48,284 nt of DNA. Origin: Minisyncoccia bacterium (GTDB lineage Bacteria > Patescibacteriota > Minisyncoccia > Phycocordibacterales > Phycocordibacteraceae). The stretch spans positions 1-48,284 of the forward strand of contig JBFJWB010000001.1 of NCBI GenBank assembly GCA_041623915.1, in the 5' to 3' direction. A program made the translations under genes and the position numbers. This document shows positions 14,613-38,948 of this stretch, piece after piece (within the stretch, counting starts at the first letter, position 1; each line of letters starts with the position of its first letter). The notes below the pieces were generated by a model. It saw nothing but the letters and a program-made list of their open reading frames with translations, was not told where the DNA came from and ran no database searches.

Positions 14613-14686
14613 TGGGGGATCGTCTAATGGTAGGACGACTGGTTCTGGTCCAGTTAATCGGGGTTCGAGTCCCTGTCCCCCAGCCA
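14613..14686 (+). tRNA. tRNA-Gln (CTG), CCA encoded
   Basis: Acceptor TGGGGGA/TCCCCCA (U1:A72), anticodon stem ACTGG/CCAGT with loop TTCTGGT, T arm CGGGG-TTCGAGT-CCCTG, then GCCA. Confidence 0.9.
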
Positions 14687-14709
14687 ACTCGTGCGAGGTT
14701 CTTGCGCTC
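14680..14709 (+). repeat. Left copy of a 30-nt direct repeat (tRNA-Gln 3' end plus flank); candidate attL
   Basis: CCAGCCAACTCGTGCGAGGTTCTTGCGCTC matches 38919-38948 at 28 of 30 positions. Confidence 0.6.
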
Positions 14710-14725
14710 GAGACGCGTAGTTTGA
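14704..14725 (+). repeat. Partial copy of the 5' end of the 94-nt R element
   Basis: GCGCTCGAGACGCGTAGTTTG matches the first 21 nt of R1 (38831) and R2 (41079) with one or two mismatches, then diverges. Confidence 0.5.
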
Positions 14726-14778
14726 GAGTCTAGTGGACACTGTTGTTGCCTCAGAGTGCAATTTTCCTTTTTAAGGAA

Positions 14779-14799
14779 TTAGTGTATAAAATACACATG
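14779..14799. promoter_or_regulatory. NrtR-box-like site overlapping the nrtR start codon (possible autoregulation)
   Basis: TTAGTGTATAAAATACACATG contains GT-N7-AC and shares TTAGTGTATA with the site at 15513. Confidence 0.35.
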
Positions 14800-15462
14800 T
14801 CAAAAAATAAAGCACCACGCTTTGCTGTAGTTGCAGTAGATGCGGTTTGCTTTTCGATTTTAGAGAACAAACTCCACGTACTTCTTGGTGAGGTAAACAT
14901 AAAGCCATTTTATGCTGACCGACTTGGTCTCATTGGTGGGTTAGTAGCACCAGAGCAGAGTGCTGAAGAGGCGGTAGAACAGCAACTTATGAAGAAGGTG
15001 GGTATAACGAACCTATATAAAGAGCAACTCCATACATTTAGCAAGCTAACGCGTGACCCACGCAACAGGGTAATTTCTATTGCGTATTTGTGCCTCACAG
15101 CAGACCCTTTTGAGATGCGAGGAGGATCAATTCAGACTATTTGGTGCCCTATAGATGAGGTGCCCGATCTTGCGTACGATCATAACGAAATACTCAGTGT
15201 TGCTGTAGAGCGCCTACGTTCGAGAGTAGGGTATACCAATGTCATACAACATTTCCTTCCCAAAGAGTTCACATTAACAGATTTGCAAGGCGCATATGAG
15301 ACCGTGCTTAACCGCTCGCTTGATAAGCGCAATTTCAGAAAAAAGGTGAAAGATGTGCAATTAGTTCGGGCAACAGAGAAGAAGATCAAGAGGGGGGCAA
15401 GTCGGCCTGCAGAGCTGTATCGCTTTGCCTCTCGCGGTCTGACCGCCATCGAAATCCTTTAG
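14797..15462 (+). CDS. nrtR: NrtR-family transcriptional regulator (degenerate Nudix domain plus C-terminal winged helix)
   Basis: The Nudix box is degenerate (GGLVAPEQSAEEAVEQQLMKKVGI; RE changed to EQ, EE changed to KK). The C-terminal FTLTDLQGAYETVLNRSLDKRNFRKKV...RPAELYRF is typical of NrtR. Confidence 0.8.
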   Translation: MSKNKAPRFAVVAVDAVCFSILENKLHVLLGEVNIKPFYADRLGLIGGLVAPEQSAEEAVEQQLMKKVGITNLYKEQLHTFSKLTRDPRNRVISIAYLCLTADPFEMRGGSIQTIWCPIDEVPDLAYDHNEILSVAVERLRSRVGYTNVIQHFLPKEFTLTDLQGAYETVLNRSLDKRNFRKKVKDVQLVRATEKKIKRGASRPAELYRFASRGLTAIEIL

Positions 15463-15498
15463 TCCTGCAGAGTGCTCCGCAGATGTGGATAGTAATAC

Positions 15499-15538
15499 TT
15501 GACACCATTATCTTAGTGTATATACTACACTAAGATAA
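15499..15538 (+). promoter_or_regulatory. Sigma70-like promoter overlapped by a 31-nt palindrome (candidate NrtR operator)
   Basis: TTGACA (15499-15504), 16-nt spacer, TATACT (15521-15526). The palindrome TTATCTTAGTGTA-TATAC-TACACTAAGATAA (15508-15538) has perfect 13-bp arms and a GT-N7-AC core. Confidence 0.55.
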
Positions 15539-15724
15539 AACACAGGGACATGTTTTACTTGACGAGTTAGCATTTTTCTAGTAAAGAAAGCAAACCCATA
15601 GACACTTATGTCAAGACGTTTCAAGCTCTCGAGAGAGGGAATGAGTCGTCTCGACATTAGGCCGAGATGTTCTTTTAAAAACCTATACTCATCGCAGTTA
15701 AAGCTGTATTAGGAGGATGCTCAA

Positions 15725-16564
15725 ATGGATACATTCCAAATAGCTGGCGCTTCGGTGCCAGGAGTGGACCACATCATGCCAGGCAAGCCCGGTTGGAAAA
15801 ACAACCAGGATGCCTTCTTGTGGAGGCAGTCATCGCAACACATCATTGGTGTGGTTTGCGACGGTTGTGGCAGTAGTCAGTACAGCGAAGTGGGCGCCCG
15901 CGTGGGTGCTCATGTCGTCGTGGATACTGCGGATCTCATCCTCGGCAATAGTGCTATTTCGGCCGACTCTTCAGAGTCTGCCGAGGCATTCTGTCGGGAT
16001 CTCACCCAAAAGGCGTGTGCTCGTCTTACGACAATTATTTCGCTGCTCGGTGGTGATTTCAAGGATGTCGCACTGGATCAGTTTCTTTTCTCGACGGTTG
16101 GTTTCGTACTAACGTCGAATGCGTTGCTGGTCTTCTCGTGCGGTGATGGGGTGTACGCAATAAACGGCAAGATCGCGACCATCGGTCCGTTCCCCGGGAA
16201 TGCACCGCCCTATCTAACGTATTCGTTGCTTTCCGGGAAAACGTCATTCACGCAACAAGCCTTACGGCCCGCTGATGACGTGCAGTCGGTATTGATCGGC
16301 ACAGACGGCGTTGCGGATCTCATTGCGGTAGCGGATGTTGATATGCCGGGTCAGAAGGACGCCATTGGCCATCTCAGTCAATTCTGGGATACCGAAAAAT
16401 TCTTCAAAAACCCGGACGCCATCCGTCGCCGGCTTGCGCTCGTGAACCGTGAACGTGTTCTCGATGGCCGTATTAAACACGGTTTGTTACATGACGATAC
16501 GACACTCGTTGTTCTTCGACGGGTATTCCAGCAAGGAGAGGGCATATGCCACACTACTTCCTGA
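15725..16564 (+). CDS. PP2C-family protein phosphatase (PP2C_2-like)
   Basis: Strong RBS AGGAGG 9 nt upstream. Motifs KNNQDAF, GVVCDGCGSS, SCGDG and IGTDGVADL are typical of bacterial PP2C-like phosphatases. Confidence 0.8.
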   Translation: MDTFQIAGASVPGVDHIMPGKPGWKNNQDAFLWRQSSQHIIGVVCDGCGSSQYSEVGARVGAHVVVDTADLILGNSAISADSSESAEAFCRDLTQKACARLTTIISLLGGDFKDVALDQFLFSTVGFVLTSNALLVFSCGDGVYAINGKIATIGPFPGNAPPYLTYSLLSGKTSFTQQALRPADDVQSVLIGTDGVADLIAVADVDMPGQKDAIGHLSQFWDTEKFFKNPDAIRRRLALVNRERVLDGRIKHGLLHDDTTLVVLRRVFQQGEGICHTTS

Positions 16565-18411
16565 AAAGTGGACAGCGTCTCCGGCTTCGGCCGGACAGTG
16601 CTGTCGGTAAGGGTGGCGAGGCTGATGTCTTTCTTGACAAAGGTCGTGCCGTGAAAATCTTCAAACCACCAACGCATGCTGATCTCGCGGGTAATCCGCA
16701 GGAACAGGCTGCATCAAAGGAACGTCTTGCTGAGCATCAGCACAAACTACCAACCTTCCCGAGAGGTCTTCCTTCGCGGGTCGTGGCTCCACGTGAGCTT
16801 GTCTATGACGCCAAGAACCGCATCGCCGGTTATTGCATGGATCATGTGGCAGGTGCTGAAGTGCTCTACCATTATGGGGAGCGGTCCTTCAGAGATGCCG
16901 GCGTTTCGGACGATACCGTAGTCTCAGTATTGGCAGATCTGCACCGTACGGTACAGGCTGTACACGATGCGCAGGTCATCATTGGAGACTTCAATGACAT
17001 GAATGTTCTGGTTAAGCAGACCGCAGCATTCCTCATCGATGCGGACAGCATGCAGTGGGGGTCATGGAAAACGCGGGTATTTACGGCGAGGTTCGTCGAC
17101 CCGCTTCTATGCGATCCGCATGCAAAGTCGTTAATGCTAGCCAAGCCACATACCGAACATTCTGATTGGTATGCGTACGCAGTTATGCTGATGCGACTAC
17201 TGCTGTTTGTCGAACCATTTGGGGGTGTCTATATGCCAAAAGATCCGAAAAAGCGTGTTGTGCATACGCAACGTCCGCTTAAACGGATCACGGTGTTTGA
17301 TCCTGAGGTGCGGTATCCCAAACCTGCACGACCATACCACATTCTTCCGGATGACTTGCTTGATTTCTTCGAGCAAACCTTCGCGAAGGATATGCGTAAA
17401 GTCCCGCCATACTCGCTGGTCGAGAATCTTCGGTTCGCGACTTGTACCAAGTGTGGCACCGTGCATGCGCGGGGAACCTGTCCTTCGTGTATAACTATCA
17501 CACCGCCTATGCGGAAAGAGGTGCACGCGGGCAGGATTTCGGCATTCAAGGAGTTCACCACCTTCGGAGTCATTCTGTACGCCACTATCGACGGCGATAC
17601 GCTCCGCTACCTGTATCATCGGGACGGAGTGTACGTACGTGAGAATGACGTGCGGGTGCTGTCCGGTGCTCTCGATCCACACATCCGGTACCGCATTAGC
17701 GGTTCACGGACAGTGATGGGTCGCGGTGAACGGGCACTCCTTCTCGAAGGAGATGTTCCAGAGCAATTCGCCACAGATGCCCACAATCTTCTTTCGCTCT
17801 TCGATGCAAACAGGAAGCATGTCTTCTATGTGCACGCAGGCGGGCTATGGAGGGTGAGCAACCTTGGTGTCCAGTATCCAGAACGATGGGGCGACGTGCT
17901 TGCACGACAGACCCTGTTCTGGGTGGGTGAGAAATTCGGTTTTGGGTTCTATCGGGCAGGGGAGCTTTGTCGCTTTTTTGTCTTCAACACGACTCATGCC
18001 GGTATCAACGATTCGGTCAACTTGCCGCCACTTAGTGGCCAGCTGGTCGATGCGACGTGCTGTTTCGGCAAGGACCGCATTTGGTTCTTCGTCGCAACTA
18101 GCGAAGGTGGACAGACCGTTCATCGGTGTCACGTTCTCGATGGTCGCGGAACATATCTCGCAAGTGCTGACGCCATTGCCGGAGACGGTAGTTGGCTCCA
18201 GACTTTGCGCGGGAAGTGTGCTGCAAACGATTTCCTGCTTTCGGCAACTGATAATGGTGTCGTACGTGTGGAAGTCGGGAACGGCGTAGCCGTGACCAAA
18301 GAGTTTCCTGCAACCACGGAGTTCGTTGATTCTGACTCGCGCATCCTCCTTGGTAGCAAGGGGCTCTACACGATCAGAAAGAACGAGATTTGGCGGTTGG
18401 TTCTCAAATAG
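16546..18411 (+). CDS. Protein kinase-like protein with a Zn-ribbon and a C-terminal domain of about 300 aa of unknown function
   Basis: Overlaps the PP2C gene by 19 nt. Gly-rich loop GKGGEADVF, Lys in AVKIF, catalytic loop IIGDFNDMNVLV (D-x4-N), metal-binding LIDADS, and CTKCGTVHARGTCPSC. Confidence 0.75.
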   Translation: MPHYFLKSGQRLRLRPDSAVGKGGEADVFLDKGRAVKIFKPPTHADLAGNPQEQAASKERLAEHQHKLPTFPRGLPSRVVAPRELVYDAKNRIAGYCMDHVAGAEVLYHYGERSFRDAGVSDDTVVSVLADLHRTVQAVHDAQVIIGDFNDMNVLVKQTAAFLIDADSMQWGSWKTRVFTARFVDPLLCDPHAKSLMLAKPHTEHSDWYAYAVMLMRLLLFVEPFGGVYMPKDPKKRVVHTQRPLKRITVFDPEVRYPKPARPYHILPDDLLDFFEQTFAKDMRKVPPYSLVENLRFATCTKCGTVHARGTCPSCITITPPMRKEVHAGRISAFKEFTTFGVILYATIDGDTLRYLYHRDGVYVRENDVRVLSGALDPHIRYRISGSRTVMGRGERALLLEGDVPEQFATDAHNLLSLFDANRKHVFYVHAGGLWRVSNLGVQYPERWGDVLARQTLFWVGEKFGFGFYRAGELCRFFVFNTTHAGINDSVNLPPLSGQLVDATCCFGKDRIWFFVATSEGGQTVHRCHVLDGRGTYLASADAIAGDGSWLQTLRGKCAANDFLLSATDNGVVRVEVGNGVAVTKEFPATTEFVDSDSRILLGSKGLYTIRKNEIWRLVLK

Positions 18412-18434
18412 TACTGCAAAGTAAGGAGTCGTTC

Positions 18435-19511
18435 ATGAACGCAACAACATCTCTTCCACCGCCAGCATTTTTCAACCCGAAAAACGCCGGTGACTGGAAC
18501 TATAGCCCGGATCAGCGCGCCATCTATATGGCCGCCGATGACATTCGGCAGAGTGCCGGGCTGAAGGCCGCTACGACTGACTGTAAGAAGGTGCATTTGC
18601 TCCTGATTGATGTCCAGAAGGACTTCTGCCTACCCGGTGGAACGCTCTATGTGGGCGGACGGTCGGGAACGGGAGCTGTTGATGACTCACGCAGGATCGC
18701 GGAATTCATTTACCGCAATCTCAATGTCATTTCCAGCATAACGACGACTTTGGATACGCACTTCGCGTTCCAGATCTTCTCTCCCGCGTTCTGGCAGGAT
18801 CAGGACGGTGCGCCACTGTTGCCGTTTGACAATGTCACGGGCGACCTGACGGTCCTCCGTGCTGGTCAACCGGCCGGTAAGGCGACGCCGAGCCCGCTCG
18901 CAGCCGCGGTCGTGGCCAATGGCAACCTTGCCTGGCTCCAAAAGCAGGCGGCCTATTACTGTCGCATGCTCGAGGAAGGCGGAAAGTACCAGCTCACGAT
19001 CTGGCCGGAGCATTGCATCCTGGGATCTGACGGGCACGCGCTCACCGGCGTCATCCACGAAGCGCGCATGTACCATGCGTTTGCGCGTGGCGCCCAGAGC
19101 CTCTCCGAGGTAAAGGGCGGGAATCCGCTCACCGAGTGCTATTCAGTGCTCGGTGCGGAAGTGCGCACCCGCTTCGATGGTCAACCGCTCGCCCAGAAGA
19201 ACGTCAAGTTCATTCAGACGCTGTTCACTGATGACTATGTGGTCATCGGCGGCCAGGCGGCTAGTCATTGTGTGAAGTCGTCAATCGAAGATCTGCTGGA
19301 TGAAATCCTGGCGAAGGACCCGGTGCTCGCACGCAAGGTCTATGTGATGAGGGACTGCATGTCCTCTGTCACTGTTCCGGATGGAAACGGCGGTTTCATC
19401 GCCGACTTCACGCCGGAAGCCGAGCAGGCGCTCGACAAGTTCGCAAATGCCGGTATGCATGTTGTGGAAAGCACGATGTCTATGGCCGACTGGCCGGACT
19501 TCAATCTGTAA
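18435..19511 (+). CDS. pncA: Nicotinamidase (isochorismatase superfamily), long form
   Basis: RBS AAGGAG. Motifs LLLIDVQKDF, LDTH and WPEHCILGSDGHAL (nicotinamidase WPxHC signature). Catalytic Cys in GGQAASHCVKSS. Confidence 0.8.
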   Translation: MNATTSLPPPAFFNPKNAGDWNYSPDQRAIYMAADDIRQSAGLKAATTDCKKVHLLLIDVQKDFCLPGGTLYVGGRSGTGAVDDSRRIAEFIYRNLNVISSITTTLDTHFAFQIFSPAFWQDQDGAPLLPFDNVTGDLTVLRAGQPAGKATPSPLAAAVVANGNLAWLQKQAAYYCRMLEEGGKYQLTIWPEHCILGSDGHALTGVIHEARMYHAFARGAQSLSEVKGGNPLTECYSVLGAEVRTRFDGQPLAQKNVKFIQTLFTDDYVVIGGQAASHCVKSSIEDLLDEILAKDPVLARKVYVMRDCMSSVTVPDGNGGFIADFTPEAEQALDKFANAGMHVVESTMSMADWPDFNL

Positions 19512-19568
19512 CCCGGTGCCGATAGTCGCGAAGCGCGGCTATCGGCCCATCAACCAAGGAGCACTCAC

Positions 19569-20354
19569 ATGAGTGAAGCAACAGTAGAAAACCTCTTCTC
19601 AGGAGCAGCATCCATAGGAATGCTGGGCCCGGAAGCTCTGGAAGCAGTCGACATCGAAGATCTCGGCGAGCAGATCCAGGCCGGGCTTGGCATCTCACCT
19701 GATGATGTTCAGGCGAGCGAAGTCACTCTGGTGGCACTGCTCATCGACGACTCGAGTTCCATTCGTTTCGCCGGTCACACCGACTTGGTGCGGGAAGGTC
19801 ACAACCTGATCGTCTCGTCACTGGCGGAAACCAAGCAGAAGGACAGCATCCTGATTCACAATCGTTACCTGAATGGGCAGATTCTGTATCCATTCGTTCA
19901 AGTTGGTGACGCCGAACAGATGGATACGTCCAACTACGACCCGGTCGGGGGTACGCCTTTGTACGATCAGGCTGTCGCTCTGCTAGCCACCGTGGCAGCA
20001 AAGTGTCAGGAATTTGCCAACAGTGGCGTTCCGGCGCGTGCTGTCATTGCCTGGATTACCGACGGTGCCGACCAGCATTCGCTTAAGTCGGCGCAAGACG
20101 TTGCCGTGGTGGCGAAGGATCTCCTCATGCAGGAGACCTTCATCATCATCGGTATGGGCATCAGCGATGGTGGTCAGACGGACTTCCGTGAGGTGTTCCG
20201 GAACATGGGTGTTGAGGACGAATGGATTTTGACACCCGGCAATTCACCGAGCGAGATCCGAAAGGCGTTTGCCATGGTTTCGCAATCGTCGGTGCAAGCG
20301 AGTCAGGGTGCGCAGTCCTTCAGCGAAACTGCGATGGGTGGCTTCGGGAGTTAA
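19569..20354 (+). CDS. von Willebrand factor A domain protein (TerY-like)
   Basis: MIDAS motif in VALLIDDSSSI, later TDGADQHS. About 260 aa, a size typical of TerY-like vWA proteins. Confidence 0.8.
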   Translation: MSEATVENLFSGAASIGMLGPEALEAVDIEDLGEQIQAGLGISPDDVQASEVTLVALLIDDSSSIRFAGHTDLVREGHNLIVSSLAETKQKDSILIHNRYLNGQILYPFVQVGDAEQMDTSNYDPVGGTPLYDQAVALLATVAAKCQEFANSGVPARAVIAWITDGADQHSLKSAQDVAVVAKDLLMQETFIIIGMGISDGGQTDFREVFRNMGVEDEWILTPGNSPSEIRKAFAMVSQSSVQASQGAQSFSETAMGGFGS

Positions 20355-20528
20355 TTCCGAAGTCTTGGTTTTTGTTCTTCTCTGGGCAACAGGGAGAGCG
20401 TCATGCTCTCCCTTCCCAGATTGAGATTCCTTTTGGAATCTCCTTTATGGAGTGCTTGAGTTATGCTCGAGCCCTCCTCAAGGAGATTTTTTCAGTTCTT
20501 TTCAAACATCATATACGTGGAGGTCATC

Positions 20529-22370
20529 ATGACACACACGCTTGACATCAAAGTTGCTGTGGCACAGATGCGCCCCATGATCAGTGCTATTCGTCACAAT
20601 GTTGACTGTATATTGAAGCAGATTCGGGAAGCGCACATCGGTGGCGCTGATATCATTGTCTTTCCAGAACTCGCCACATCTGGCTATGTTCTGGGCGACC
20701 GATGGGAGCAGGAGGCTCTCATTCGCGAGATCGAAGCTCTCGACGAGGAGATCCGTGCAGCAAGCATGGGTATCATTGTAGTTTGGGGTTCAGTTAAAGT
20801 CGATTGGCAGAAAATCGGCGAGGATGGTCGTGTCCGCAAATACAATGTGGCGCGGATTGCCGCAAATGGAACGTGGGTATCAAATGGGTTGCTCGACGGG
20901 TGGATCCCCAAGACCAACCTGCCCAAGTATCGGATCTTCGACGACGCACGCCACTTCTATACGAGTGCAAATCTCGCAGCGGAGATGGGGTGCAAGGTCG
21001 ATGAACTGCTCCGGGTTTTCTCGGTTCAGTGTAGGGGCAAAAACCTGTCGCTTGCGCTCACGATCTGCGAGGATCTCTGGGAGGATGAATATCTCACCAA
21101 GCCCTCGCGCATTTATGGCGCACAGTGTCCTGATCTGCTGATCGACATCTCGGCCTCGCCTTGGACGGCGGGCAAGTGTATGGCACGTGATCGTATGCTT
21201 GTGCGCCGTGTGCAGGACTCGGGTCTCCCGATTCTGTATGTGAACGCTGTAGGACTTGAGAACAACACCAAGAACCTTATTTGGTTCGATGGTGATTCAG
21301 CGTTCGTCAATACCGAAGGAGCTATTATTTGGCGTGCACCACAGCACAGTTCAGGGTTGTTCTATGCTGAGCTTGCGGGGACTCAACAAGTAGTTCCCGA
21401 GCGGTTGTCCGGCGTTGCCGAGATTCATGGAGCACTCGTTTCAGCCATGCGCGAGTTCTTTGGTCCGTTCAATAGAGTCGTCATCGGATTATCTGGTGGC
21501 ATCGATTCTGCGGTCTCGGCTGCGCTTTTGGTTGAAGCACTGGGTCCTGAGAAGGTGTTGGCAGTCAACATGCCGACGATGTTTAACTCGACTACGACGC
21601 AACGGTTGGCAGCACAGTGTGCAGGAAATTTGGGTATCGAGTATCATGTAGTACCGATACAACAGCTTCTTGATACCCACTGTGCAGCGCTGACTACTGC
21701 TGGCTTTACTTATCCGGAGGGTTTAGTTCTGGAGAATATCCAGGCTCGTATTCGTGGAGCAGGTATCCAGGCGACCTTGGCGCAGATGGAGGGTGGCGTG
21801 TTTGTCTGTAACGGCAACAAAACCGAAGTGGCTCTCAACTACTTCACGCTGTATGGCGATGGAGCGGGTGCCGCAGCGTTCCTTGCGGATCTTTGGAAGG
21901 GGCAGGTTTACGAGCTTGCACGGTTTTTGAATCAGCGTGCTGGTCAGGAACTGATTCCGGAAGGAATCCTAACATTAGTGCCTTCAGCAGAACTCTCAGA
22001 AGAGCAGAACGTCGAGGAAGGGAAAGGGGACCCAATCTTCTATCCTTACCATGACAAGCTCCTTCGGGCGTTCACGGAGAGGCGCTGGGACCCAACAACG
22101 GTTCTTGCGTACGCGATCGCAAACGATCTTGAGGCACAACTCGGTTGTGAACCAGGAACGCTTGGCGCATTCTTCTCCACTCGAGCGGCTTTTGTAGAAA
22201 ACCTCGAGTGGGCATGGGAGTGTTACAGTGTCGAGTTTAAACGCGCACAAACACCACCAGTGTTTCTCGCATCGCGTCGCGCCTTCGGTTTTGATCGCCG
22301 TGATACGATTTCAGCGGGGTATCTCACGGAAGAGTATCGTACTCTCAAGGCGCGCTATCTGTCTGCCTAA
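20529..22370 (+). CDS. nadE: Glutamine-dependent NAD+ synthetase (CN-hydrolase domain plus NAD synthase domain)
   Basis: RBS GGAGG. The N-terminal nitrilase-like domain has FPELATSGY and LTICEDLW. The PP-loop is GLSGGIDSAVSA in the C-terminal half. Confidence 0.9.
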   Translation: MTHTLDIKVAVAQMRPMISAIRHNVDCILKQIREAHIGGADIIVFPELATSGYVLGDRWEQEALIREIEALDEEIRAASMGIIVVWGSVKVDWQKIGEDGRVRKYNVARIAANGTWVSNGLLDGWIPKTNLPKYRIFDDARHFYTSANLAAEMGCKVDELLRVFSVQCRGKNLSLALTICEDLWEDEYLTKPSRIYGAQCPDLLIDISASPWTAGKCMARDRMLVRRVQDSGLPILYVNAVGLENNTKNLIWFDGDSAFVNTEGAIIWRAPQHSSGLFYAELAGTQQVVPERLSGVAEIHGALVSAMREFFGPFNRVVIGLSGGIDSAVSAALLVEALGPEKVLAVNMPTMFNSTTTQRLAAQCAGNLGIEYHVVPIQQLLDTHCAALTTAGFTYPEGLVLENIQARIRGAGIQATLAQMEGGVFVCNGNKTEVALNYFTLYGDGAGAAAFLADLWKGQVYELARFLNQRAGQELIPEGILTLVPSAELSEEQNVEEGKGDPIFYPYHDKLLRAFTERRWDPTTVLAYAIANDLEAQLGCEPGTLGAFFSTRAAFVENLEWAWECYSVEFKRAQTPPVFLASRRAFGFDRRDTISAGYLTEEYRTLKARYLSA

Positions 22371-22385
22371 CCACGTTATGTTTGA

Positions 22386-22494: not shown

Positions 22495-22557
22495 AGTTCT
22501 TTTTAACGTTAATCCTATACACTCATCAGTTGTCCTGCATAAGGCAAGGAGGAGGTC

Positions 22558-23959: not shown

Positions 23960-23991
23960 AAAACGCTCCGATTTCGATTGGAGCGTTTTTA
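23960..23991 (+). terminator. Rho-independent terminator closing the NAD/TerY-P-like operon
   Basis: AAACGCTCC-loop-GGAGCGTTT followed by TT. Confidence 0.75.
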
Positions 23992-31793: not shown

Positions 31794-31800
31794 GTTTTCT

Positions 31801-33291
31801 ATGTTGATCTCGAAGACGACCTTTCAGGAGTTTCTCTTTTGCCCGAAGAATATCTGGTTGAAGCTCCATAAGCCGGAACTCCTCGAGAAATACAAACTAT
31901 CAGAATACGAACTCCATCTCGTTGAACAAGGCAATGAGGTTGAGTCGGTCACGCGTGGGCGGTTCCCCGGAGGCGTACTTGTGGGAGAAAGCGGTGAGCG
32001 AGCCGTTGCTGAAACGGTACGGCTTATGGCAGAGAAAGTCCCGGCCATATTTCAGGCGACTTTCATTCAAGACGGATTCATTGCTCGTAACGACGTGCTC
32101 ATATACGACAAGGAACATGACCAGTGGGATCTCTGCGAAATCAAGGCGACGAACTCGATTAAAGAGGGTGGTAAGGAGCGTGACCACATTGTCGATATTG
32201 CATTTCAGGCCTCGATCCTGCGACGCGCTGGTGTGCCTATAGGCAAGTATCTTCACATGCGACTGAACAAGGATTACATCCGTGCTGGCGATCTTGATAT
32301 TCAATCCCTTTTCATCATTGAAGACGTCACCGAGGAAGTAACCAGCCGTCTCCCCGAAGTTGAAGAGAAGATGGAAACCGCACGATATTACCTAAACCAA
32401 GAGAAGGAACCGGCGGGTGGCTGTGATTGTGTGTATACCTCGCGCAGGAATCACTGCACGACCTTCTCACATTCAAATCCTCATATTCCAGAGTATTCGG
32501 TGCATGACATCGCCTACGTCAGCAAGAAGAAACTCGCGAACTTCATGGATCAGCATGTACTCAGTCTTGAGGAAATCGAGGATCCAGACGCGTTTGGACT
32601 GACAGATAAGCAGAAGGTGCAGGTACTCGCACACCGCCTTGGCAATCCGATGATCGATACGGACGTGATTGCCAGAGAACTCAACAAGCTTGTTTTCCCG
32701 CTCTATTTCCTCGACTACGAGGCGTACGGCCCCGCTATCCCGGTCTTTAACGGATACCGCCCCTACATGCACATCCCGTTCCAGTTCTCTCTGCACGTCC
32801 TCCACGAACCGAACGCCGCGCTTGAGCACGTCGAGTACCTCCACACCGAACTCTCCGACCCTTCAGAACCTATTGCGAGGCTGTTGAAAGAACACATCAT
32901 CGGTGGCACCACTGTCTCTTGGTACAAACCGTACGAGACACGAATTAACCGCGAGATAAGTGAGCGGCTTCCTGAGTACCGTGATTTCTTTGAGCGCATG
33001 AATGGTTCTATGTACGATCTTCGAGACATATTTATTGCACAGCACTACGTACACAAAGACTTCAAGGGAAAGACCTCGATCAAGAAAGTCCTCCCCGTTC
33101 TTGCGCCGGAACTAAAATACTCTGACCTAGAGATTCAAGAAGGAGCTACCGCCTCGAAGCTCTGGTGGGAGATGATTGCGCCGAGCACGGATGAGGCAAT
33201 AAAGAAGGCGACCGAAGAGAACCTCAAGAAGTACTGCGGCCTCGATACCTACGCTATGGTCGCCATTTGGAGGCACTTGAGCGAGCTATAA
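31801..33291 (+). CDS. DUF2779-family protein (N-terminal PD-(D/E)xK-like nuclease, C-terminal DnaQ-like region)
   Basis: Start at MLISKTTFQEFLFCPKNIWLK. Motifs ARNDVL...CEIKATNS, then FLDYEAYGPAIP...IPFQFSLH and CGLDTYAMV. Confidence 0.7.
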   Translation: MLISKTTFQEFLFCPKNIWLKLHKPELLEKYKLSEYELHLVEQGNEVESVTRGRFPGGVLVGESGERAVAETVRLMAEKVPAIFQATFIQDGFIARNDVLIYDKEHDQWDLCEIKATNSIKEGGKERDHIVDIAFQASILRRAGVPIGKYLHMRLNKDYIRAGDLDIQSLFIIEDVTEEVTSRLPEVEEKMETARYYLNQEKEPAGGCDCVYTSRRNHCTTFSHSNPHIPEYSVHDIAYVSKKKLANFMDQHVLSLEEIEDPDAFGLTDKQKVQVLAHRLGNPMIDTDVIARELNKLVFPLYFLDYEAYGPAIPVFNGYRPYMHIPFQFSLHVLHEPNAALEHVEYLHTELSDPSEPIARLLKEHIIGGTTVSWYKPYETRINREISERLPEYRDFFERMNGSMYDLRDIFIAQHYVHKDFKGKTSIKKVLPVLAPELKYSDLEIQEGATASKLWWEMIAPSTDEAIKKATEENLKKYCGLDTYAMVAIWRHLSEL

Positions 33292-33370
33292 AGATTTTTC
33301 TCCTCCTGAAGAGGATCTGTTGAGATTGCTAGAGAAAGCTAAAAAATAAAACGTCGCCTCGGAAAGAGCA

Positions 33371-33398
33371 TTGACAGATAGATTATCTAATATATAGT
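33371..33398 (+). promoter_or_regulatory. Putative promoter with an embedded TAGAT-T-ATCTA palindrome
   Basis: TTGACA (33371-33376), 16-nt spacer, TATAGT (33393-33398). Confidence 0.35.
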
Positions 33399-33482
33399 CT
33401 CATAGGACTAAGGCCGGTCTTTGTCATCATGACTCTGGCTGTACCACTTTGCTTTATGTCCGTAGCTACGGAGGATCCACCT

Positions 33483-33680
33483 ATGGATCGCAATGAAGAG
33501 GCCTCCGGGGCCGAAACCGGAATGCTGACGCTGTGCGGTGTCCAGGGCTGTTGCCCGACCGTCGACTTCACCAATCCCAACGAGATCGTCCTTCGCGACG
33601 ACCATGGCGGGAAGGTTCGGCTCACGCAGGCCGAATGGGGCGAGCTGAAGCAGTTCGTCCGTCAGCCCCCGCAGGGCTGA
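33483..33680 (+). CDS. Small Cys-containing protein (65 aa), DUF397-like pattern; possible partner or substrate of the radical SAM enzyme
   Basis: GGAGG lies 8 nt upstream of the ATG at 33483. Sequence ...LTLCGVQGCCPTVDFTNPNEIVLRDDHGGKVRLTQAEWGELKQFV. Confidence 0.45.
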   Translation: MDRNEEASGAETGMLTLCGVQGCCPTVDFTNPNEIVLRDDHGGKVRLTQAEWGELKQFVRQPPQG

Positions 33681-33766
33681 TCAATCACATCGTGCACGAT
33701 GCGGCCAGGCCCCCAGTCGGAAGATTGGGGGCTTTCTCTCATCTTAAATCTCCAAGGAGAAGTTAA

Positions 33767-35083
33767 ATGTTCTCAAGGTATCTCTGCACTCGTGAACGAG
33801 ATGGGGTGGTGGCCGTGTTTCATGAGCTGCATCCTAATCCTGTTTACGTTACGGCATCCGAGTGGCGTGCGTATCTTTCTGGTGGAACCCTGAGTGACCT
33901 ACTTGAGTCACAACTGCAAGAGCAAAAGCTCATTGTCAGTGGCGAAGCCGAAGACAATCGTTCGTTTGCCGTTGCTGAAGCTCGCTTGCTTGAAAAGCTG
34001 CAACACGTGACCATTCTGTACCTAATGACCGCACAGGGATGCAATGCCAAATGCGGATACTGTCCGGTACCGGATATCGCAAAAAGGTATGGAGTAAGTC
34101 TCCTTACCACTGAAGCCGCGAAAGCGGGTATCGACTTGTGGCAACTTCACTTAGAAGATGTCTTTGATGACAATCGCGATTACTTCGTGATCTTCTACGG
34201 AGGTGAACCTCTGCTCAACAAGCCGGTCATCGCGGCGTCGCTGCGGTATCTTGAAGCACAGAAGGCGGCAGATAAGCTGCCGAAGCGAGTTCAATACATG
34301 GTGGCGACCAATGGTCTTCTCATCGACGATTCATTCGTGGATCTTTGTCTTGAACACCAAATGTCGGTAGCAGTTGGACTCGATGGTGATGCGCAAGCCA
34401 ATGATGCGCTCAAGATTGATGTTGAAGGACGTCCTACGTTTGAGACGATCGTGTCGGCTATTAAGCGACTCGTCGCTGCTGGCGTACCAACTTACGCGTC
34501 ATGTAGCATTACGCCGTTTAACCTCGATCATGTCGATGAAATGTCCGCGTTATTTAGAGAGCTTGGGGTCAAGAAATTTGGCTTCAACTTTCTGCGTGGT
34601 CAAAAACTCGTTGAGCTCGTAGGGGCAAATGGTGTTGGGTCGTACTATCGGAAAGCTGCAAAGGCAATTATCCGTCATGCTCGAAACCAAGCCGAATCTG
34701 GATTCGAGTTTCAGATGGAGAAAAAGGCACTGGCGTACTCGCGGGGTGATTTCTTCCCACTTGACTGCACGTGCTATGGAAGCCAGTTGGTTATTCAGCC
34801 CGATGGGCAGGTTTCCAACTGCCCGTTCTTCAAGGCTCGGCTTGGTGATGTGCAGTCACTCGGTGCTGATTTCCGGATTGGTGATCAGCCGATCGTGCAG
34901 GAATGGAGGCGTCGTCTCCCGATCTATCACTCAAGTGATGCGAAAGCATTGTCTGGCGGTGGTTGTGCGTGGGGAATGGTCAGTCAAAATCTCAACCCTT
35001 CGGTCACCGATGTTGGTAGCCGAATCTTTGCAGAGGAGGTTCTCGATGAGTTTATCTGGAATACCTACCGAGTTCGCTCATGA
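33767..35083 (+). CDS. Radical SAM enzyme with a SPASM/twitch-type C-terminal domain
   Basis: RBS AAGGAG. CxxxCxxC cluster motif in MTAQGCNAKCGYCPV, then FYGGEPLL, and C-terminal Cys motifs CTCYG...NCPFF...GGGCAWG. Confidence 0.85.
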   Translation: MFSRYLCTRERDGVVAVFHELHPNPVYVTASEWRAYLSGGTLSDLLESQLQEQKLIVSGEAEDNRSFAVAEARLLEKLQHVTILYLMTAQGCNAKCGYCPVPDIAKRYGVSLLTTEAAKAGIDLWQLHLEDVFDDNRDYFVIFYGGEPLLNKPVIAASLRYLEAQKAADKLPKRVQYMVATNGLLIDDSFVDLCLEHQMSVAVGLDGDAQANDALKIDVEGRPTFETIVSAIKRLVAAGVPTYASCSITPFNLDHVDEMSALFRELGVKKFGFNFLRGQKLVELVGANGVGSYYRKAAKAIIRHARNQAESGFEFQMEKKALAYSRGDFFPLDCTCYGSQLVIQPDGQVSNCPFFKARLGDVQSLGADFRIGDQPIVQEWRRRLPIYHSSDAKALSGGGCAWGMVSQNLNPSVTDVGSRIFAEEVLDEFIWNTYRVRS

Positions 35084-35897
35084 GCAACCTCGGATAGCAA
35101 TCATTGGAGGTTCGGGTATGTGTTTTTTTCCTGAACTTTCGGAATCTTACCGAGTGCGGCCATTAACTAAGTACGGTTTCCCATCTGATTACATCAGAGT
35201 GTGCCGTTATGCAGATCAGATGGTTGCGTTCTTGCCTCGTCATGGGGAGCAGCACTCGCTCGCTCCGCACAAGGTTCCGTACAAGGCAAACTTGTCTGCG
35301 TTGCGAGATCTTGGGGTAGAAACGGTTGTGGCTACCTGTATCGCAGGCAGTCTCAAGGAAGACATTCCGCCTGGGAGCTTCGTTATTCCAGATCAATTCG
35401 TGAATCTCACGTGGGGTCGGGATGATTACGTCGAAGCTGACGGGGGGAAGTTCATGCATCTCCCGATGGCTGAGCCGTATTGTGCGGAAACGAGGCAATT
35501 GGTTGCACGCGCAATGAGGTCTCTAGACATTGTGCCAGTGAATCAAGCGACTGCAGTGGTGATTCAAGGCCCACGTTTCTCAACGCGGGCTGAAAGTCAG
35601 ACATTCATTCGCAATGGTTGGGACATTGTCAACATGACCCAGTATCCGGAGTGTTACTTGGCTCGGGAGCTTGGTCTTTGTTACGGCTCGTTTGCTGCCA
35701 TAACCGATTACGATGTTGGCGTCGATTCATGTCTCTCAATGAGTCCTGGGCATATGGACGACGTGCTCAAGATCTTTCAAGACAACATCGTCAAGACGAA
35801 GCAAGTGCTTCAACACCTACTCGAACAGGTGGCAAATACTCCGGTTCAATGTCGGTGTTCACGAGAAATTGTGAGGTCGTACTATGAGCAGGGGTAA
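35046..35897 (+). CDS. MTAP-family purine nucleoside / 5'-methylthioadenosine phosphorylase
   Basis: PRIAIIGGSGM, FLPRHG, ATCIAGSL, IQGPRFSTRAES and NMTQYPE. The start overlaps the radical SAM gene end by 38 nt. Confidence 0.85.
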   Translation: MSLSGIPTEFAHEQPRIAIIGGSGMCFFPELSESYRVRPLTKYGFPSDYIRVCRYADQMVAFLPRHGEQHSLAPHKVPYKANLSALRDLGVETVVATCIAGSLKEDIPPGSFVIPDQFVNLTWGRDDYVEADGGKFMHLPMAEPYCAETRQLVARAMRSLDIVPVNQATAVVIQGPRFSTRAESQTFIRNGWDIVNMTQYPECYLARELGLCYGSFAAITDYDVGVDSCLSMSPGHMDDVLKIFQDNIVKTKQVLQHLLEQVANTPVQCRCSREIVRSYYEQG

Positions 35898-36023
35898 TTC
35901 TCACACCCCGCTGGTTTAACAACCAGCGGGGTGTTTTTGATTGCCAAATAACGATTTTTATTGTACTGTGTCGACCAGACAATGTACCTTCGACAGTGGT
36001 ACACTCTCAAACAATTCAGGAGT

Positions 36024-37706
36024 ATGAGTATGTTAAAAGTAAGCAATCTACATAAGAGTTATGGTGCCACTGTCGTGTTCTTCGACATTTCGTTCTCGCT
36101 CGAGCGAGGACAGAAAGTGGCATTGGTCGGCAGTAACGGAAGCGGGAAATCAACCCTGCTCCGTATGATTGCTGGCGTTGAGAAAAAGGACGATGGGGAC
36201 ATCGACTTCTCGAAGCATGCCTGCGTTGGCTATTTGCCACAGGACACGAGCACTATCGAAGACTTACCAATCCGTGATTATTTGCGGAAAGTGGCTGGTG
36301 TCGATGTTATCGAGTCGCGCATGCACGAGCTGTCGCAGAACCTTGAAGATAAGGCTGCAGCAGAGGAGTACAGTGACCTGCAGGAGGTATATCTTCATCT
36401 CGATGGATACGCATTTGAACATCGTATGGAGATGGTGTTGGCCGGCTTCGGCCTCTCCGACGTCGGTCTTGAACGTCGCGCATCGCAGTTGAGCAGTGGA
36501 CAGAAGTCGAAGGTTACTTTGGCCGGCATTCTTCTCAAGGGTGTCGATGTCCTATTGCTCGATGAACCAACCAACAATCTCGACCTGCCCGCTTTGGTTT
36601 GGTTGGAAGATTATCTGCGTAAGTCAGAGGCAACGGCGATTATTGTGTCCCACGATCGTCGCTTTCTTGATCAGACGGTGCGGAAAGTCTTTGAGCTTGA
36701 TGCGAGCACCAACACACTCAACATCTCAGGAGGTACTTACAGCGACTATCTTGCAATGAAATCGAAGCGCTTCGCGAGACAGCTTCAGGAGTTCGAACAA
36801 CAACAGGAGGAAATCGGTAGACTCTCTGAGCGAGCTGGTCGTCTCCGGTCTAGTTCGGACAAGGGGTCTAACTGGAAGGGATCCGACAACGACAAGTTTC
36901 TACGTGGCTTTAAGCAAGATCGGGCTGGCCGTTCGGCCCGAACAGCAAAGTCGATTGAAAAACGTATCGATCGTATTGATCGTGTTGAAAAACCAATCGA
37001 ACGTGATCCTCTCAGGATCGAGCTGAAAGCCCAGGAGTCCCCGAGTTCATGTGTGATAACACTTTCGGATTTGGTCGTGGGGTATAAGGATGGGTTCCAA
37101 GCCGGTCCACTTTCCCTCACCATCTCACCCGGAGTCCGTGTCGGCATCATGGGTCTAAATGGGAGCGGGAAGTCGACTTTGCTCAAGACCATTGCAGGGG
37201 AGCTGTCCCCAGTTTCTGGTTCAGTCGAAATCGGTCGTGGCCTCAAGTTAGGCAACATGATGCAGGAACACGAAACCCTGCCTCGTGACATGACCGTGCT
37301 CGAATGTGCCATGAAGCGGATGGGTTTGGCGACGCAGGGTACATTTGCACATCTGGTCAAGTTCGATCTTTCGGAAAGCCAGATCCGTCAGCCGATTAGC
37401 AACTTGAGTCCAGGCGGGAGAGCTCGTCTCTTGTTGGCGATTTTCGCAGCAACTGCAGTTAACGCGTTGTTGCTCGATGAGCCAACTAACCATCTTGATC
37501 TTGAAGCGCTTGAGGCACTCGAAGAAGCTCTAGAGACATATCAAGGGACGGTAATCTTGGTGTCTCACGACCGTTACTTTCTGGAGACCGCAAAGCTCGA
37601 TTTGGTGTACGTCTTGTCGGATGGAGTCTTCACAAAGATTCCTGATTACACTGTGTACGTCAAAGAAGCGGAAGCGCGCGCAGAGCAACTACTACGTTCG
37701 TTGTAA
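36024..37706 (+). CDS. ABC-F family ATPase (two ABC domains, no TM domain)
   Basis: Walker A GSNGSGKST and GLNGSGKST, signatures LSSGQKSK and LSPGGRAR, plus a charged inter-domain linker. RBS CAGGAG. Confidence 0.9.
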   Translation: MSMLKVSNLHKSYGATVVFFDISFSLERGQKVALVGSNGSGKSTLLRMIAGVEKKDDGDIDFSKHACVGYLPQDTSTIEDLPIRDYLRKVAGVDVIESRMHELSQNLEDKAAAEEYSDLQEVYLHLDGYAFEHRMEMVLAGFGLSDVGLERRASQLSSGQKSKVTLAGILLKGVDVLLLDEPTNNLDLPALVWLEDYLRKSEATAIIVSHDRRFLDQTVRKVFELDASTNTLNISGGTYSDYLAMKSKRFARQLQEFEQQQEEIGRLSERAGRLRSSSDKGSNWKGSDNDKFLRGFKQDRAGRSARTAKSIEKRIDRIDRVEKPIERDPLRIELKAQESPSSCVITLSDLVVGYKDGFQAGPLSLTISPGVRVGIMGLNGSGKSTLLKTIAGELSPVSGSVEIGRGLKLGNMMQEHETLPRDMTVLECAMKRMGLATQGTFAHLVKFDLSESQIRQPISNLSPGGRARLLLAIFAATAVNALLLDEPTNHLDLEALEALEEALETYQGTVILVSHDRYFLETAKLDLVYVLSDGVFTKIPDYTVYVKEAEARAEQLLRSL

Positions 37707-37713
37707 GCAATAT

Positions 37714-37752
37714 TGGCCCGGGAATTACGAAAGTGATTTCTGGGCCATTTTT
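37714..37752 (+). terminator. Probable terminator at the GC-rich/AT-rich transition
   Basis: TGGCCC...GGGCCA stem followed by TTTTT. Confidence 0.45.
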
Positions 37753-37767
37753 CTATATAATCTGTAC

Positions 37768-38280
37768 ATGCTGAACTTAGACAACCTGATTTTACAAATA
37801 CAACACTCCCAAAAGACACTTTTTATCCTGTGTGGTTTTCCTTATGCAGGTAAGTCGTATGTGGCAAGTACAGTGTGCGCACAAACAGATATAGCGTTTG
37901 TGAGTATTGATGAAATCTTCCACGCACGTGGATTTGATTGGAATACCGACACTCTGCCAAATGCAGAGGAATGGGCGCAGATATTTGACGAGTCATTCGA
38001 AAGAACAAAAGACCTGCTCGCACAAGGAAAGAATGTACTCTATGACTCGACCAATCAAACAGTGGAGAGTAGAGATCAATTGAGGAAGGTTGCTGATTCT
38101 GTTGGTGCGGATGCTAGGGTGGTATACGTCAAAACAGCAGTGGAGACAGTCTGGAAGCGTTGGGAAGACGCTCGAGAAAACCAACATCGCTCAGTGGTGG
38201 GTAGGGAGCTGGTACAAGCGACCATTGATATGTTTGAAGAACCTGCAAAGGCGGAGCAGGTGCTAATCATTGAGAATTAA
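37768..38280 (+). CDS. P-loop kinase-like protein (AAA_33 / zeta-toxin-like fold)
   Basis: Walker A LCGFPYAGKSY, then VLYDSTN. Confidence 0.6.
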   Translation: MLNLDNLILQIQHSQKTLFILCGFPYAGKSYVASTVCAQTDIAFVSIDEIFHARGFDWNTDTLPNAEEWAQIFDESFERTKDLLAQGKNVLYDSTNQTVESRDQLRKVADSVGADARVVYVKTAVETVWKRWEDARENQHRSVVGRELVQATIDMFEEPAKAEQVLIIEN

Positions 38281-38379
38281 GTGACAGATCAAAGATTCGT
38301 TTCTGTGTCACTTTTGTAACTTTTGATGCGTTCGAGACGCGTTAATTACAGTATCTCCATAAAGCGATACAATGGTGTT

Positions 38380-38820
38380 ATGGAGAAAGAAAAGAAGTTC
38401 GTTATCCGCTGTAGAGCGATTATTGTGCACGAAGGAAGGCTGCTGGTAGTGCGTCACGCGCACGATACCAGTTTTGCTGCTCTTCCAGGCGGTCACTTGG
38501 AGTGGGGAGAGGATGCAAAGGAGTGTATGAGTAGAGAAATAGTAGAAGAATTGGGAGTAAGGCCGGAGATAGGTAGATTGTTGTATATCAATACTTTTAT
38601 TGATGGCGTGGACACACAGCCCATAGAGTTCTTTTTTGAGGTGTTAAACGGTGCAGATTATCTAAACAGCGATAATTTGGCTCGGACACATGCCCATGAG
38701 ATTTCTGAAATAGTTTGGGCAAGCCCAACTGATGATATAAAGATACTTCCCGAGAAAATGGGAGCAGATTTTAAGAGAGGCAGACTTTTTTCTGATGAGA
38801 TTCGATACCTTAAGGGTTAA
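38380..38820 (+). CDS. Nudix hydrolase (intact Nudix box)
   Basis: GGHLEWGEDAKECMSREIVEELGV fits Gx5Ex7REUxEExGU. Confidence 0.85.
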   Translation: MEKEKKFVIRCRAIIVHEGRLLVVRHAHDTSFAALPGGHLEWGEDAKECMSREIVEELGVRPEIGRLLYINTFIDGVDTQPIEFFFEVLNGADYLNSDNLARTHAHEISEIVWASPTDDIKILPEKMGADFKRGRLFSDEIRYLKG

Positions 38821-38830
38821 GAAAAAAGAT

Positions 38831-38924
38831 GCGCTCGAGACGCGTCGTTTGGTTGAGGTAGAACATAGTCAATCGGACTAACTCAGGCTTGACCGATAAA
38901 AGTTCGAGCTCGAGACGGCCAGCC
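38831..38924 (+). repeat. R1, 94-nt repeat element (tRNA-Gln 3'-end-like tail)
   Basis: 87 of 94 nt are identical to 41079-41172. The 3' part, GTTCGAG-N10-CCAGCC, has the same spacing as the tRNA-Gln T-loop to 3' end. Confidence 0.8.
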
Positions 38925-38948
38925 AACTCGTGCAAGGTTCTCGCGCTC
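38919..38948 (+). repeat. Right copy of the 30-nt direct repeat; candidate attR
   Basis: CCAGCCAACTCGTGCAAGGTTCTCGCGCTC matches 14680-14709 at 28 of 30 positions. Confidence 0.6.

Follow-up and report, generated by a model that had tools for sequence, protein, structure and literature searches.

In the staphylococcal cassette chromosome (SCC) elements of the SCCmec type, serine recombinases are encoded inside the element, and tandem accretion leaves att-like repeats and remnants that carry no recombinase. Serine-integrase phages usually insert in protein-coding genes or intergenic sites, not at tRNA tips, and the phage-inducible chromosomal islands (PICIs) use tyrosine integrases. In the ssrA-specific islands of Dehalococcoides, a CcrB-like large serine recombinase (LSR), DsiB, integrates cargo at the 3' end of a tRNA-like gene (McMurdie et al. 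2011, PMC3146451). Tandem arrays of these islands form downstream of that gene, with a repeat at the end of each island; their integration module includes a ParB-like gene; and they encode no transfer machinery, phage-mediated transfer having been proposed for them. The same study also summarises the accretion features of SCCmec (PMC3146451). The tycheposons of Prochlorococcus bring cargo to tRNA genes, where partial copies of the tRNA and tandem junctions are seen. In most of them, the recombinase is of the tyrosine type and genes for replication (primase, helicase) are present; 27 of 937 carry an LSR, and a PICI-like subset has TerS or a capsid gene and was never seen with cargo (Hackl et al., bioRxiv 10.1101/2020.12.28.424599). 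In this study, we analysed a contig of a Minisyncoccia bacterium (JBFJWB010000001.1, assembly GCA_041623915.1) over its whole length of 48,284 nt, hereafter the window; the genome is a metagenome bin of 560 kb in 44 contigs. An original prediction, made from the letters alone, had noted a 30-nt direct repeat of the 3' end and flank of a tRNA-Gln gene around some 24 kb of accessory DNA. Our results indicate that positions 14685-38923 are very probably one 24.2-kb integrative element, which is inserted at the 3' tip of tRNA-Gln, encodes an LSR internally and owes its terminal repeat to the stacking of two related elements. No published description of this element family was found in our literature search.

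Both copies of the repeat were recovered: the left copy, CCAGCCAACTCGTGCGAGGTTCTTGCGCTC, lies at 14680-14709 and the right copy, CCAGCCAACTCGTGCAAGGTTCTCGCGCTC, at 38919-38948, on the same strand and identical at 28 of 30 positions. No match of this kind appeared in 100 dinucleotide-preserving shuffles, and a search of all 44 contigs that allowed up to 6 substitutions returned these two copies and no others. The concern that the 30-mer might be one member of a dispersed repeat family was therefore unfounded; the R sequences described below, which had given rise to it, are the att arms and scars of the element family. Around the 30-mer, a weaker similarity extends over 61 nt (77% identity, 14663-14723 against 38902-38962) and takes in a GTTCGAG-N10-CCAGCCA pattern. 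Only the first 7 nt of the left copy (CCAGCCA) correspond to the tRNA gene, of which they are the last 7 nt. The GC content is 0.40-0.43 to the left of tRNA-Gln, 0.48-0.57 between the repeats and approximately 0.44 to the right of them, while the whole genome and its other contigs have values of approximately 0.43; within the element it dips to 0.42 at the recombinase gene and peaks at 0.57 in an operon for nicotinamide adenine dinucleotide (NAD) salvage. The limits of the element are uncertain by at most 4 nt within the sequence CAGC, and the gene content listed in the original prediction was borne out by Pfam.

Comparison with related genomes revealed an empty site. Of 41 genomes searched, 37 have the 550-amino-acid (aa) gene on the left flank of the window (11821-13473). 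For the S9 peptidase gene on the right, a close homologue (81% aa identity) was found in one of the 40 other relatives searched, the sister species G003 of the same genus, and a weak match of 23% in G020. In G003, the left-flank genes are syntenic, and tRNA-Gln with the adjoining inverted repeat (the core, see below) is followed approximately 190 nt further on by the start codon of S9, the orthologue of the gene to the right of 38948, without a 24-kb insert; cargo module B was not found at this locus. Together with the GC step, this absence upholds the proposal that the two repeat copies delimit one accessory element at the tRNA-Gln 3' end. G003 retains the 33-nt flank after tRNA-Gln, and a 60-aa LSR fragment lies approximately 1.5 kb past the S9 gene. 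Because of this flank and this fragment, the S9 gene is probably the cargo of an older, decayed element. In the same contig of G003 (C1, locus L016, 10844-12477), the orthologue of the 550-aa gene is in four pieces, one of which has three in-frame TGA codons. In addition, two more T-arm-like fragments (GGTTCGAGTCCTAAA... or GGTTCGAGTCCTAGA...) follow the flank in G003 and at least one does so in G055, 40-170 nt past tRNA-Gln, and these may be scars of other insertions at the tRNA end.

A circular form with a putative attP was seen for a relative whose LSR is 78% identical to that of the window at the aa level. Contig C8 of the sister genome G065 is 15,337 nt long and has a 141-nt terminal direct overlap, by which it assembles as a circle of approximately 15.2 kb. 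In the same order and orientation as in the window, it encodes the LSR, the LOOT RNA, an OB-fold protein, TerL, TerS, a ParB-methyltransferase (ParB-MTase; 81%) and an XRE/ImmA pair. It holds a single copy of the R element, followed directly by CCAGCCAACTCGTGCTAGGGTATCGCGCACGAGACGCGT (9693-9820); this junction is 76.6% identical to 38833-38959 and 87% identical to 14680-14718. To judge from the alignments, the junction of R with the 33-nt flank (the P' arm) would be the attP. A circle opened at this junction gives the order of the window, namely the P' arm, cargo A, LSR with backbone, cargo B and R, and direct comparison of the circle (L060) with the window matched 9642-9715 to 38277-38350 and 9695-9820 to 38833-38959.

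LSR homologues were detected in 106 of the 201 genomes of the genus, and we compared the layout of all loci with sufficient context whose LSR was 70% identical or more (G144, G200, G116, G121, G203, G099, G159, G199b, G213 and G055). At nine of these ten, a tRNA-Gln gene (CTG or TTG) was called on the strand opposite the LSR, 2.7-9 kb past the LSR 3' end; in G200, only the core was detected at the tRNA-Gln position. The common layout consists of tRNA-Gln(+), cargo, LSR(-), TerL/TerS/ParB-MTase(-), cargo and the R 3' block, and this block, CGAGACGGCCAGC, is present at the other end wherever the contig extends far enough. Among the related elements, R consistently occupies the end away from the tRNA, and in the circle it adjoins the P' arm. 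At least 11 sister species have the same P' arm of 33-34 nt directly after their tRNA-Gln gene. Several R copies and remnants are also stacked at G116, G199a, G099 and G203. G055 was used for the layout only, its right junction being decayed and its post-core sequence resembling that of G003. On contig C2 of G203, an element stack lies at tRNA-Gln(CTG), with left-flank genes syntenic to those of the window, and its end matches the tRNA-Gln(TTG) trailer on C16 of the window genome (G000) at 32 of 40 positions, which suggests a rearrangement between the two tRNA-Gln loci via resident elements. A species-wide collection yielded 296 LSR relatives in records labelled as Patescibacteria of the Paceibacteria/Parcubacteria type, and the element family is widespread in these bacteria. 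Some short LSR contigs (L116, L125, L140 and L151) were binned in metagenome-assembled genomes labelled Woesearchaeota, Chitinophagaceae, Gammaproteobacteria and Flavobacteriaceae; these labels probably reflect mis-binning, with the coverage or composition of the element unlike that of its host.

The position of the crossover can be approached through the junctions of this family. In seven integrated copies (G144, G200, G116, G121, G203, G099 and G055), R ends in ...GGCCAGC and is followed by unrelated DNA, and the tRNA side keeps the core. We compared 47 distinct tRNA-Gln trailers. The 18 that have the core all read ...CAGC followed by CAACTCG and encode CCA. In most of the 29 that lack a recognisable core, ...CAGC is followed by A or T and no CCA is encoded; eight of these 29 begin with CA, and several of these are degenerate cores. 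Starting at the base directly after CAGC, the flanks on the far side align with tRNA-Gln trailers that are unoccupied in other genomes (G203 against tRNA-Gln(TTG) on C16, as above; a metagenome pair, 30/40; G121 against G013, 27/40), and the base before CAGC stays with its own side, being G in many tRNAs and C in R. Because attR lacks the core, flank homology starts after CAGC and the preceding base stays with its own side, we infer that the crossover lies within CAGC, at the discriminator of the tRNA (positions 71-74). By this comparison, the sequence shared by attP and attB would be short (approximately 4-7 nt) and located at CAGC, the 2-bp crossover itself being below in silico resolution.

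We propose that the element circularises, so that R abuts the 33-nt flank and forms attP, and that the LSR would recombine attP with the 3' tip of tRNA-Gln by a crossover within CAGC. The resulting attL would consist of the tRNA and the P' arm, which would give the tRNA an encoded CCA, and attR would consist of R, the P arm, and whatever came after the tRNA beforehand. In the window, attL would comprise tRNA-Gln up to 14684 plus the P' arm at 14685-14718, and attR would comprise R1 at 38830-38923 plus the P' arm of an earlier relative at 38924-38957; the encoded CCA of this tRNA-Gln would then be completed by element DNA. Unoccupied tRNA-Gln genes of the genus (e.g., C16 of G000, 12372-12443) mostly have no encoded CCA and read ...CAGC followed by A, and all those followed by an element arm read ...CAGCCA. 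This difference implies that insertion would change both the 3' end and the trailer of the tRNA gene.

Under the simplest history, an element carrying S9 would already have been at the site, as in G003, and would have lost its backbone, and the 24-kb element would then have inserted between tRNA-Gln and the S9 remnant. The 30-nt direct repeat would exist because the element landed beside the P' arm of an older relative, leaving two homologous P' arms 24.2 kb apart. The att identity within the 30-mer would thus be limited to CCAGC(CA), approximately 5-7 nt, and the other 23 nt would be the P' arms of two successive elements. The original prediction had treated the repeat as a duplicated tRNA target, a reading that does not hold for these 23 nt, which are element P' arm, occur once in the circular relative and are absent from most other far junctions.

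The LSR is the proposed integrase and is most likely what inserted the element. It shows matches to PF00239 (E 7e-20), PF07508 (E 1e-15) and PF13408 (E 7e-9) and is homologous to SprA/YokA of SPbeta (9dxh, E 4e-18), its YARKS aligning with the YLRRS nucleophile motif; the catalytic domain of TP901-1 was also matched. It is the sole PF00239 match in the genome, and there is no second, paired serine recombinase of the CcrA/DsiA type. The original prediction had stated correctly that no tyrosine integrase lies at either border and that the recombinase is an internal serine type, and it had counted both as objections; with the internal LSR as the likely integrase, they lose that force. In the species-wide collection, the tRNA genes within 3 kb past LSR 3' ends were tRNA-Ser (8), tRNA-Gln (3) and tRNA-Trp (2); with a single exception, they are encoded on the opposite strand to the LSR. 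In a FastTree phylogeny of 83 LSRs, the 10 Gln-linked proteins all fell on one side of a single branch and the 7 Ser-linked and 2 Trp-linked proteins on the other. The target labels required 3 changes on this tree, compared with a mean of 7.8 after shuffling, and none of 200 shuffles was as low. The LSR tree tracks the target tRNA in the sense of clustering, which is not proof of causation.

Other explanations of the repeat were weighed against these results. The same LSR-borne element might carry the 30-mer, or the whole 39-nt CCAGCC...GACGCGT block, as true attB/attP identity, with a crossover inside CTCGTGCG-N9-CGCTCGAG (loop AGGTTCTTG) and a genuine att duplication of the kind known from SCCmec and the ssrA islands. 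We consider this unlikely, although the target in the window and in G003 did bear the core, the core forms an imperfect inverted repeat around a 9-nt spacer, a frequent feature of recombinase core sites, attL and attR of the window are identical over CCAGCCAACTCGTGC, and a single event cannot place the crossover. Direct repeats of 15-20 bp are also left by other serine-recombinase islands (PMC3146451). However, seven other copies have the core in attL and none has it in attR, which is impossible for a crossover inside the core; moreover, the homology of far-side flanks to unoccupied trailers begins directly after CAGC, and most unoccupied tRNA-Gln genes have neither the core nor an encoded CCA.

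The 3' ends of tRNA genes are the standard targets of tyrosine integrases, and the locus could be a classical tRNA island whose tyrosine integrase was lost or acts in trans, the 30-mer being a duplicated tRNA 3' end and the LSR belonging to an internal prophage remnant only. The distance of the LSR from attL (9.3 kb) and attR (13.6 kb) would suit such an island, and the uneven internal GC (0.42 to 0.57, as above) suggests a mosaic origin. Nevertheless, we regard this scenario as highly improbable, as no PF00589 domain occurs among the element ORFs (open reading frames), the only tyrosine recombinase of the genome lying on its contig C8; the tRNA accounts for just 7 nt of the repeat; the LSR phylogeny follows the target tRNA; and the LSR backbone accompanies R and the P' arm both in the circle and in 10 further insertions at tRNA-Gln with different cargo. 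That the repeats are a dispersed intergenic family or an assembly artefact, the 24 kb not being a discrete unit, is likewise highly improbable. The 15-nt motif GCGCTCGAGACGCGT does recur four times at intergenic positions of the window, and the genome is a fragmented metagenome bin, but neither the 30-mer nor R has a copy on the other 43 contigs, for which reason R as a dispersed repeat family was also rejected; all copies lie at predicted att arms or scars, and many assemblies produced independently by different studies show this architecture too.

Several observations weigh against the reading that we prefer, that is, LSR-mediated insertion at the tRNA tip beside an older relative. The crossover was placed by the junctions of other species, and given the identity of attL and attR across CCAGCCAACTCGTGC, a crossover further to the right in the window is possible. 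Under the textbook model, attP and an attL-like site are not a pair that serine integrases recombine. For insertion beside a site already occupied, the B' half-site would thus have to be loosely specified, and the diversity of unoccupied trailers suggests that this half-site may be tolerant. The branch separating Gln from Ser/Trp targets has just 86% local support, and related sequences share labels. The G065 circle could in principle stem from a head-to-tail dimer. No candidate for a recombination directionality factor was identified, these factors having no universal signature. The exact 30-mer, degenerate at its two variable bases, had no match in metagenome_contigs, and the R3 + P' junction signature had none in viral_contigs. 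A generic junction signature matched 8 contigs in metagenome_contigs, none of them with a terminal overlap and two of them short islets stacked after tRNA-Gln; these contigs yielded additional R copies and no second circle.

The features of the locus are listed in Table 1.

Table 1. Features of the tRNA-Gln locus, in window coordinates
Feature	Position	Strand	Basis and remarks
tRNA-Gln(CTG)	14613-14686	+	ARAGORN; Rfam tRNA, 58.3 bits; tip C71-A72-G73-C74 = CAGC at 14681-14684, putative crossover site
Integrated element, 24,239 bp	14685-38923	+	GC step; absence at G003 locus; layout as in 11 related elements
New P' arm CAACTCGTGCGAGGTTCTTGCGCTCGAGACGCGT (attL, element side)	14685-14718	+	Contains imperfect inverted repeat CTCGTGCG-N9-CGCTCGAG and 15-nt motif GCGCTCGAGACGCGT
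Cargo module A, NrtR-headed NAD-salvage operon	14797-23931	+	Pfam: NrtR, PP2C phosphatase, protein kinase, isochorismatase-like, unknown protein, NadE, PncB
Bidirectional terminator-like hairpin AAAACGCTCC-N9-GGAGCGTTTTT	23960-23991		Read from sequence; between convergent PncB and recombinase genes; marks cargo/backbone boundary
LSR, 438 aa	24024-25340	-	ATG at 25340; Pfam Resolvase, Recombinase, Zn_ribbon_recom
LOOT RNA	25480-25597	+	Rfam RF03000, 72.4 bits (gathering score 46.4); between LSR and OB genes
OB-fold protein (tRNA_anti-like), backbone	25654-26127	+	Pfam E 3e-30; homologues at same position in G065 and G055
Packaging module	26124-29258	-	Pfam: TerL 26124-27602; helix-turn-helix (HTH) TerS-like 27523-27990; ParB-N/DNA methylase 27987-29258
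XRE-family HTH regulator and ImmA/IrrE (M78) metallopeptidase	30168-30987	+	Pfam; same pair in G065 circle and G099
Cargo module B	31140-38280	+	Pfam: T5orf172, DUF2779, radical SAM, PNP/MTAP-like phosphorylase, ABC-F, AAA_33 kinase
Truncated R 5' block GTAACTTTTGATGCGTTCGAGACGCGT	38316-38342	+	Contiguous with rest of R in G065 circle
Nudix hydrolase cassette	38380-38820	+	Pfam NUDIX E 5e-14; flanked by 18-nt direct repeat
R1, element P arm (attR, element side)	38830-38923	+	Three conserved blocks; ends in CGAGACGGCCAGC; 24-copy alignment
Older P' arm CAACTCGTGCAAGGTTCTCGCGCTCTAAACGTGT	38924-38957	+	Supplies right 30-mer copy; 5 mismatches to family core (3 in left copy)
S9 prolyl oligopeptidase	38998-41046	+	Pfam; in G003 between tRNA-Gln with core and 60-aa LSR fragment
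R2 and deleted, decayed P'-like remnant CGAGTTCTCTACGCTTCACGAGCGT	41078-41197	+	R2 41078-41172, 93% identical to R1; remnant 41173-41197

The two full copies of R in the window (38830-38924 and 41078-41172) bracket the S9 gene. When 24 copies of R, taken from genomes and metagenomes, were aligned, they showed three conserved blocks with variable spacers between them and no conserved secondary structure, and R would thus be a protein-binding arm and not an RNA gene. Its last 23 nt match the T-arm/acceptor end of the tRNA at 14 of 23 positions (counted by eye), a resemblance that would fit one protein reading both half-sites. The GTTCGAG-N10-CCAGCCA pattern upstream of the right copy exists as the original prediction had described it; it had been read there as decayed sequence of the host tRNA, but it belongs to the element itself, as the conserved 3' block of the P arm that is shared by the 24 copies, which come from many species. 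A structured RNA or pseudo-tRNA was also considered for R and rejected: a compensatory change between R1 and R2 (TTGAG/CTCAG vs. CTGGG/CCCAG) was not kept in the 24-copy alignment, RNAalifold gave -3.3 kcal/mol with no covarying pairs, and no Rfam family matched there. The older P' arm would be an earlier tRNA-Gln trailer left behind by the previous element. R2 with its remnant is the presumed old attR and a possible alternative right end, and as its P half is intact, excision between attL and R2 could in principle mobilise the S9 gene as well.

The 5' motif of R, GCGCTCGAGACGCGT, is also present by itself at 14704 and 38328, and like R it was found on no other contig. An earlier claim that R restarts after both repeat copies is right for 14704; at 38943, the sequence is the degenerate GCGCTCTAAACGTGT, with 3 mismatches. 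In attP, the motif flanks the crossover on both sides, at approximately -88 and approximately +24. Recombination between two copies of this motif would delete the att site between stacked elements and fuse their cargo. The truncated R 5' block is the probable scar of such a fused tandem junction. The 18-nt direct repeat GATGCG(T/C)TCGAGACGCGT lies at 38325-38342 and 38828-38845 on either side of the Nudix gene, and the two Nudix flanks are contiguous in the G065 circle.

The cargo varies among relatives. PncB is present in 5 of the 201 genomes of the genus, and the position of cargo A is taken by a CsoR-CopA copper operon in G065 and G116. At the boundary of cargo A and the LSR, we found no copy of the motif that might account for cargo exchange, just the bidirectional terminator. 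A perfect palindrome, GTGTAT-AAA-ATACAC, occupies 14782-14796 and ends one base ahead of the NrtR start (ATG 14797); it is likely the NrtR operator, in which case the NAD operon would be autoregulated. In the backbone, the LOOT RNA adjoins the LSR gene in every close relative checked, that is, 10 loci and the circular contig (L060 217-339; L067-L076), and it is divergent from the LSR gene in the window and in the circle, the two orientations checked; no stated function of this RNA was found in the literature search. TerL is 26-28% identical to annotated phage large terminases, a distant but clear relationship, and the order TerL/TerS/ParB-methylase is kept in 11 elements. The XRE/ImmA pair, which usually accompanies this backbone, is likely an induction switch. 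Pfam detected no virion gene family (capsid, portal, tail) in the window, and a scan of 10 non-backbone ORFs of the G065 circle with Pfam and PHROGs gave none either, several ORFs being unassigned; no replication module (primase, polymerase, helicase) was found by Pfam among the element ORFs. With terminase genes and no detected virion genes, packaging in the capsids of a helper phage, as in a satellite, would be a likely route of spread.

These results have several implications. Patescibacteria have tiny genomes, and the routes by which they gain genes are poorly known; the element offers a concrete route, a terminase-bearing serine-recombinase island that enters at tRNA tips and brings in whole regulated operons, with different cargo at the same position (NAD salvage here, copper resistance in sister genomes). 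tRNA genes are textbook targets of tyrosine integrases, and an LSR lineage that tracks tRNAs offers a natural collection of enzymes whose att sites are related yet distinct, short and well defined; such a collection would be useful for studying how new specificity evolves in serine integrases. For annotation, a long "tRNA-end direct repeat" may come from stacked elements and is not necessarily a recombination site. More speculatively, these elements might form a distinct class of mobile element of the candidate phyla radiation (CPR), in which an LSR lineage with Gln, Ser and Trp sublineages reads tRNA acceptor/T-arm ends, each insertion rewrites the trailer and confers CCA, the 15-nt motif fuses stacks and captures cargo such as Nudix, the element's own TerL and TerS direct packaging into helper capsids, and the LOOT RNA acts in recombinase control or packaging; we offer this as a tentative possibility.

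Of the systems described so far, the Dehalococcoides ssrA islands and the SCCmec composite islands come nearest to this one, and the tycheposons are also close. The element resembles the Dehalococcoides ssrA islands in being an LSR cargo island at the 3' end of a tRNA or tRNA-like gene, in tandem stacking, in its ParB-like gene and in the absence of transfer machinery. It differs from them in that its target is the tip of a true tRNA (positions 71-74) and theirs is the T-loop of a transfer-messenger RNA, in having no DsiA-like small serine recombinase, in a recombinase gene that is internal and does not overlap attL, in carrying TerL/TerS and the LOOT RNA, and in that its long repeat is an element arm, whereas theirs is a 20-bp target duplication. 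With SCC and SCCmec (CcrAB, CcrC), it shares an internal serine recombinase and insertion at the 3' end of a conserved gene, and tandem accretion of the SCCmec kind is found here in several att-like repeats and recombinase-less remnants (R1 with the old P' arm, the S9 gene, R2 and a further remnant); however, SCCmec targets rlmH, has two recombinases in most types and no terminase genes, and its att core is 15-18 bp, as against a probable 4-7 nt or so here. Like the tycheposons, it brings cargo to tRNA genes and forms tandem junctions, with an LSR as in a minority of them, but no replication module was detected, and a terminase backbone and cargo occur in one element.

The serine-integrase phages (SPbeta SprA, A118, TP901-1, phiC31 and Bxb1) share with it the LSR architecture, sequence homology and a short attP/attB core; they carry full virion sets, none of which was detected here, and their integrase gene usually lies beside attP. 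As in the PICIs, including the Staphylococcus aureus pathogenicity islands (SaPIs), there are an integrase, a repressor-type switch (here XRE/ImmA), terminase subunit(s) and no full virion module, a combination that implies helper-dependent packaging; unlike them, the element has both TerL and TerS and a large metabolic cargo. It also differs from islands of the Islander/TIGER type, as it contains no tyrosine integrase and the far-end block that looks like tRNA is the element's own and is kept from species to species. What sets the element apart from the known systems is that it targets the tip of a true tRNA, has a single recombinase and a backbone of TerL/TerS/ParB-MTase/LOOT, and bears a long arm of its own that mimics a target duplication.

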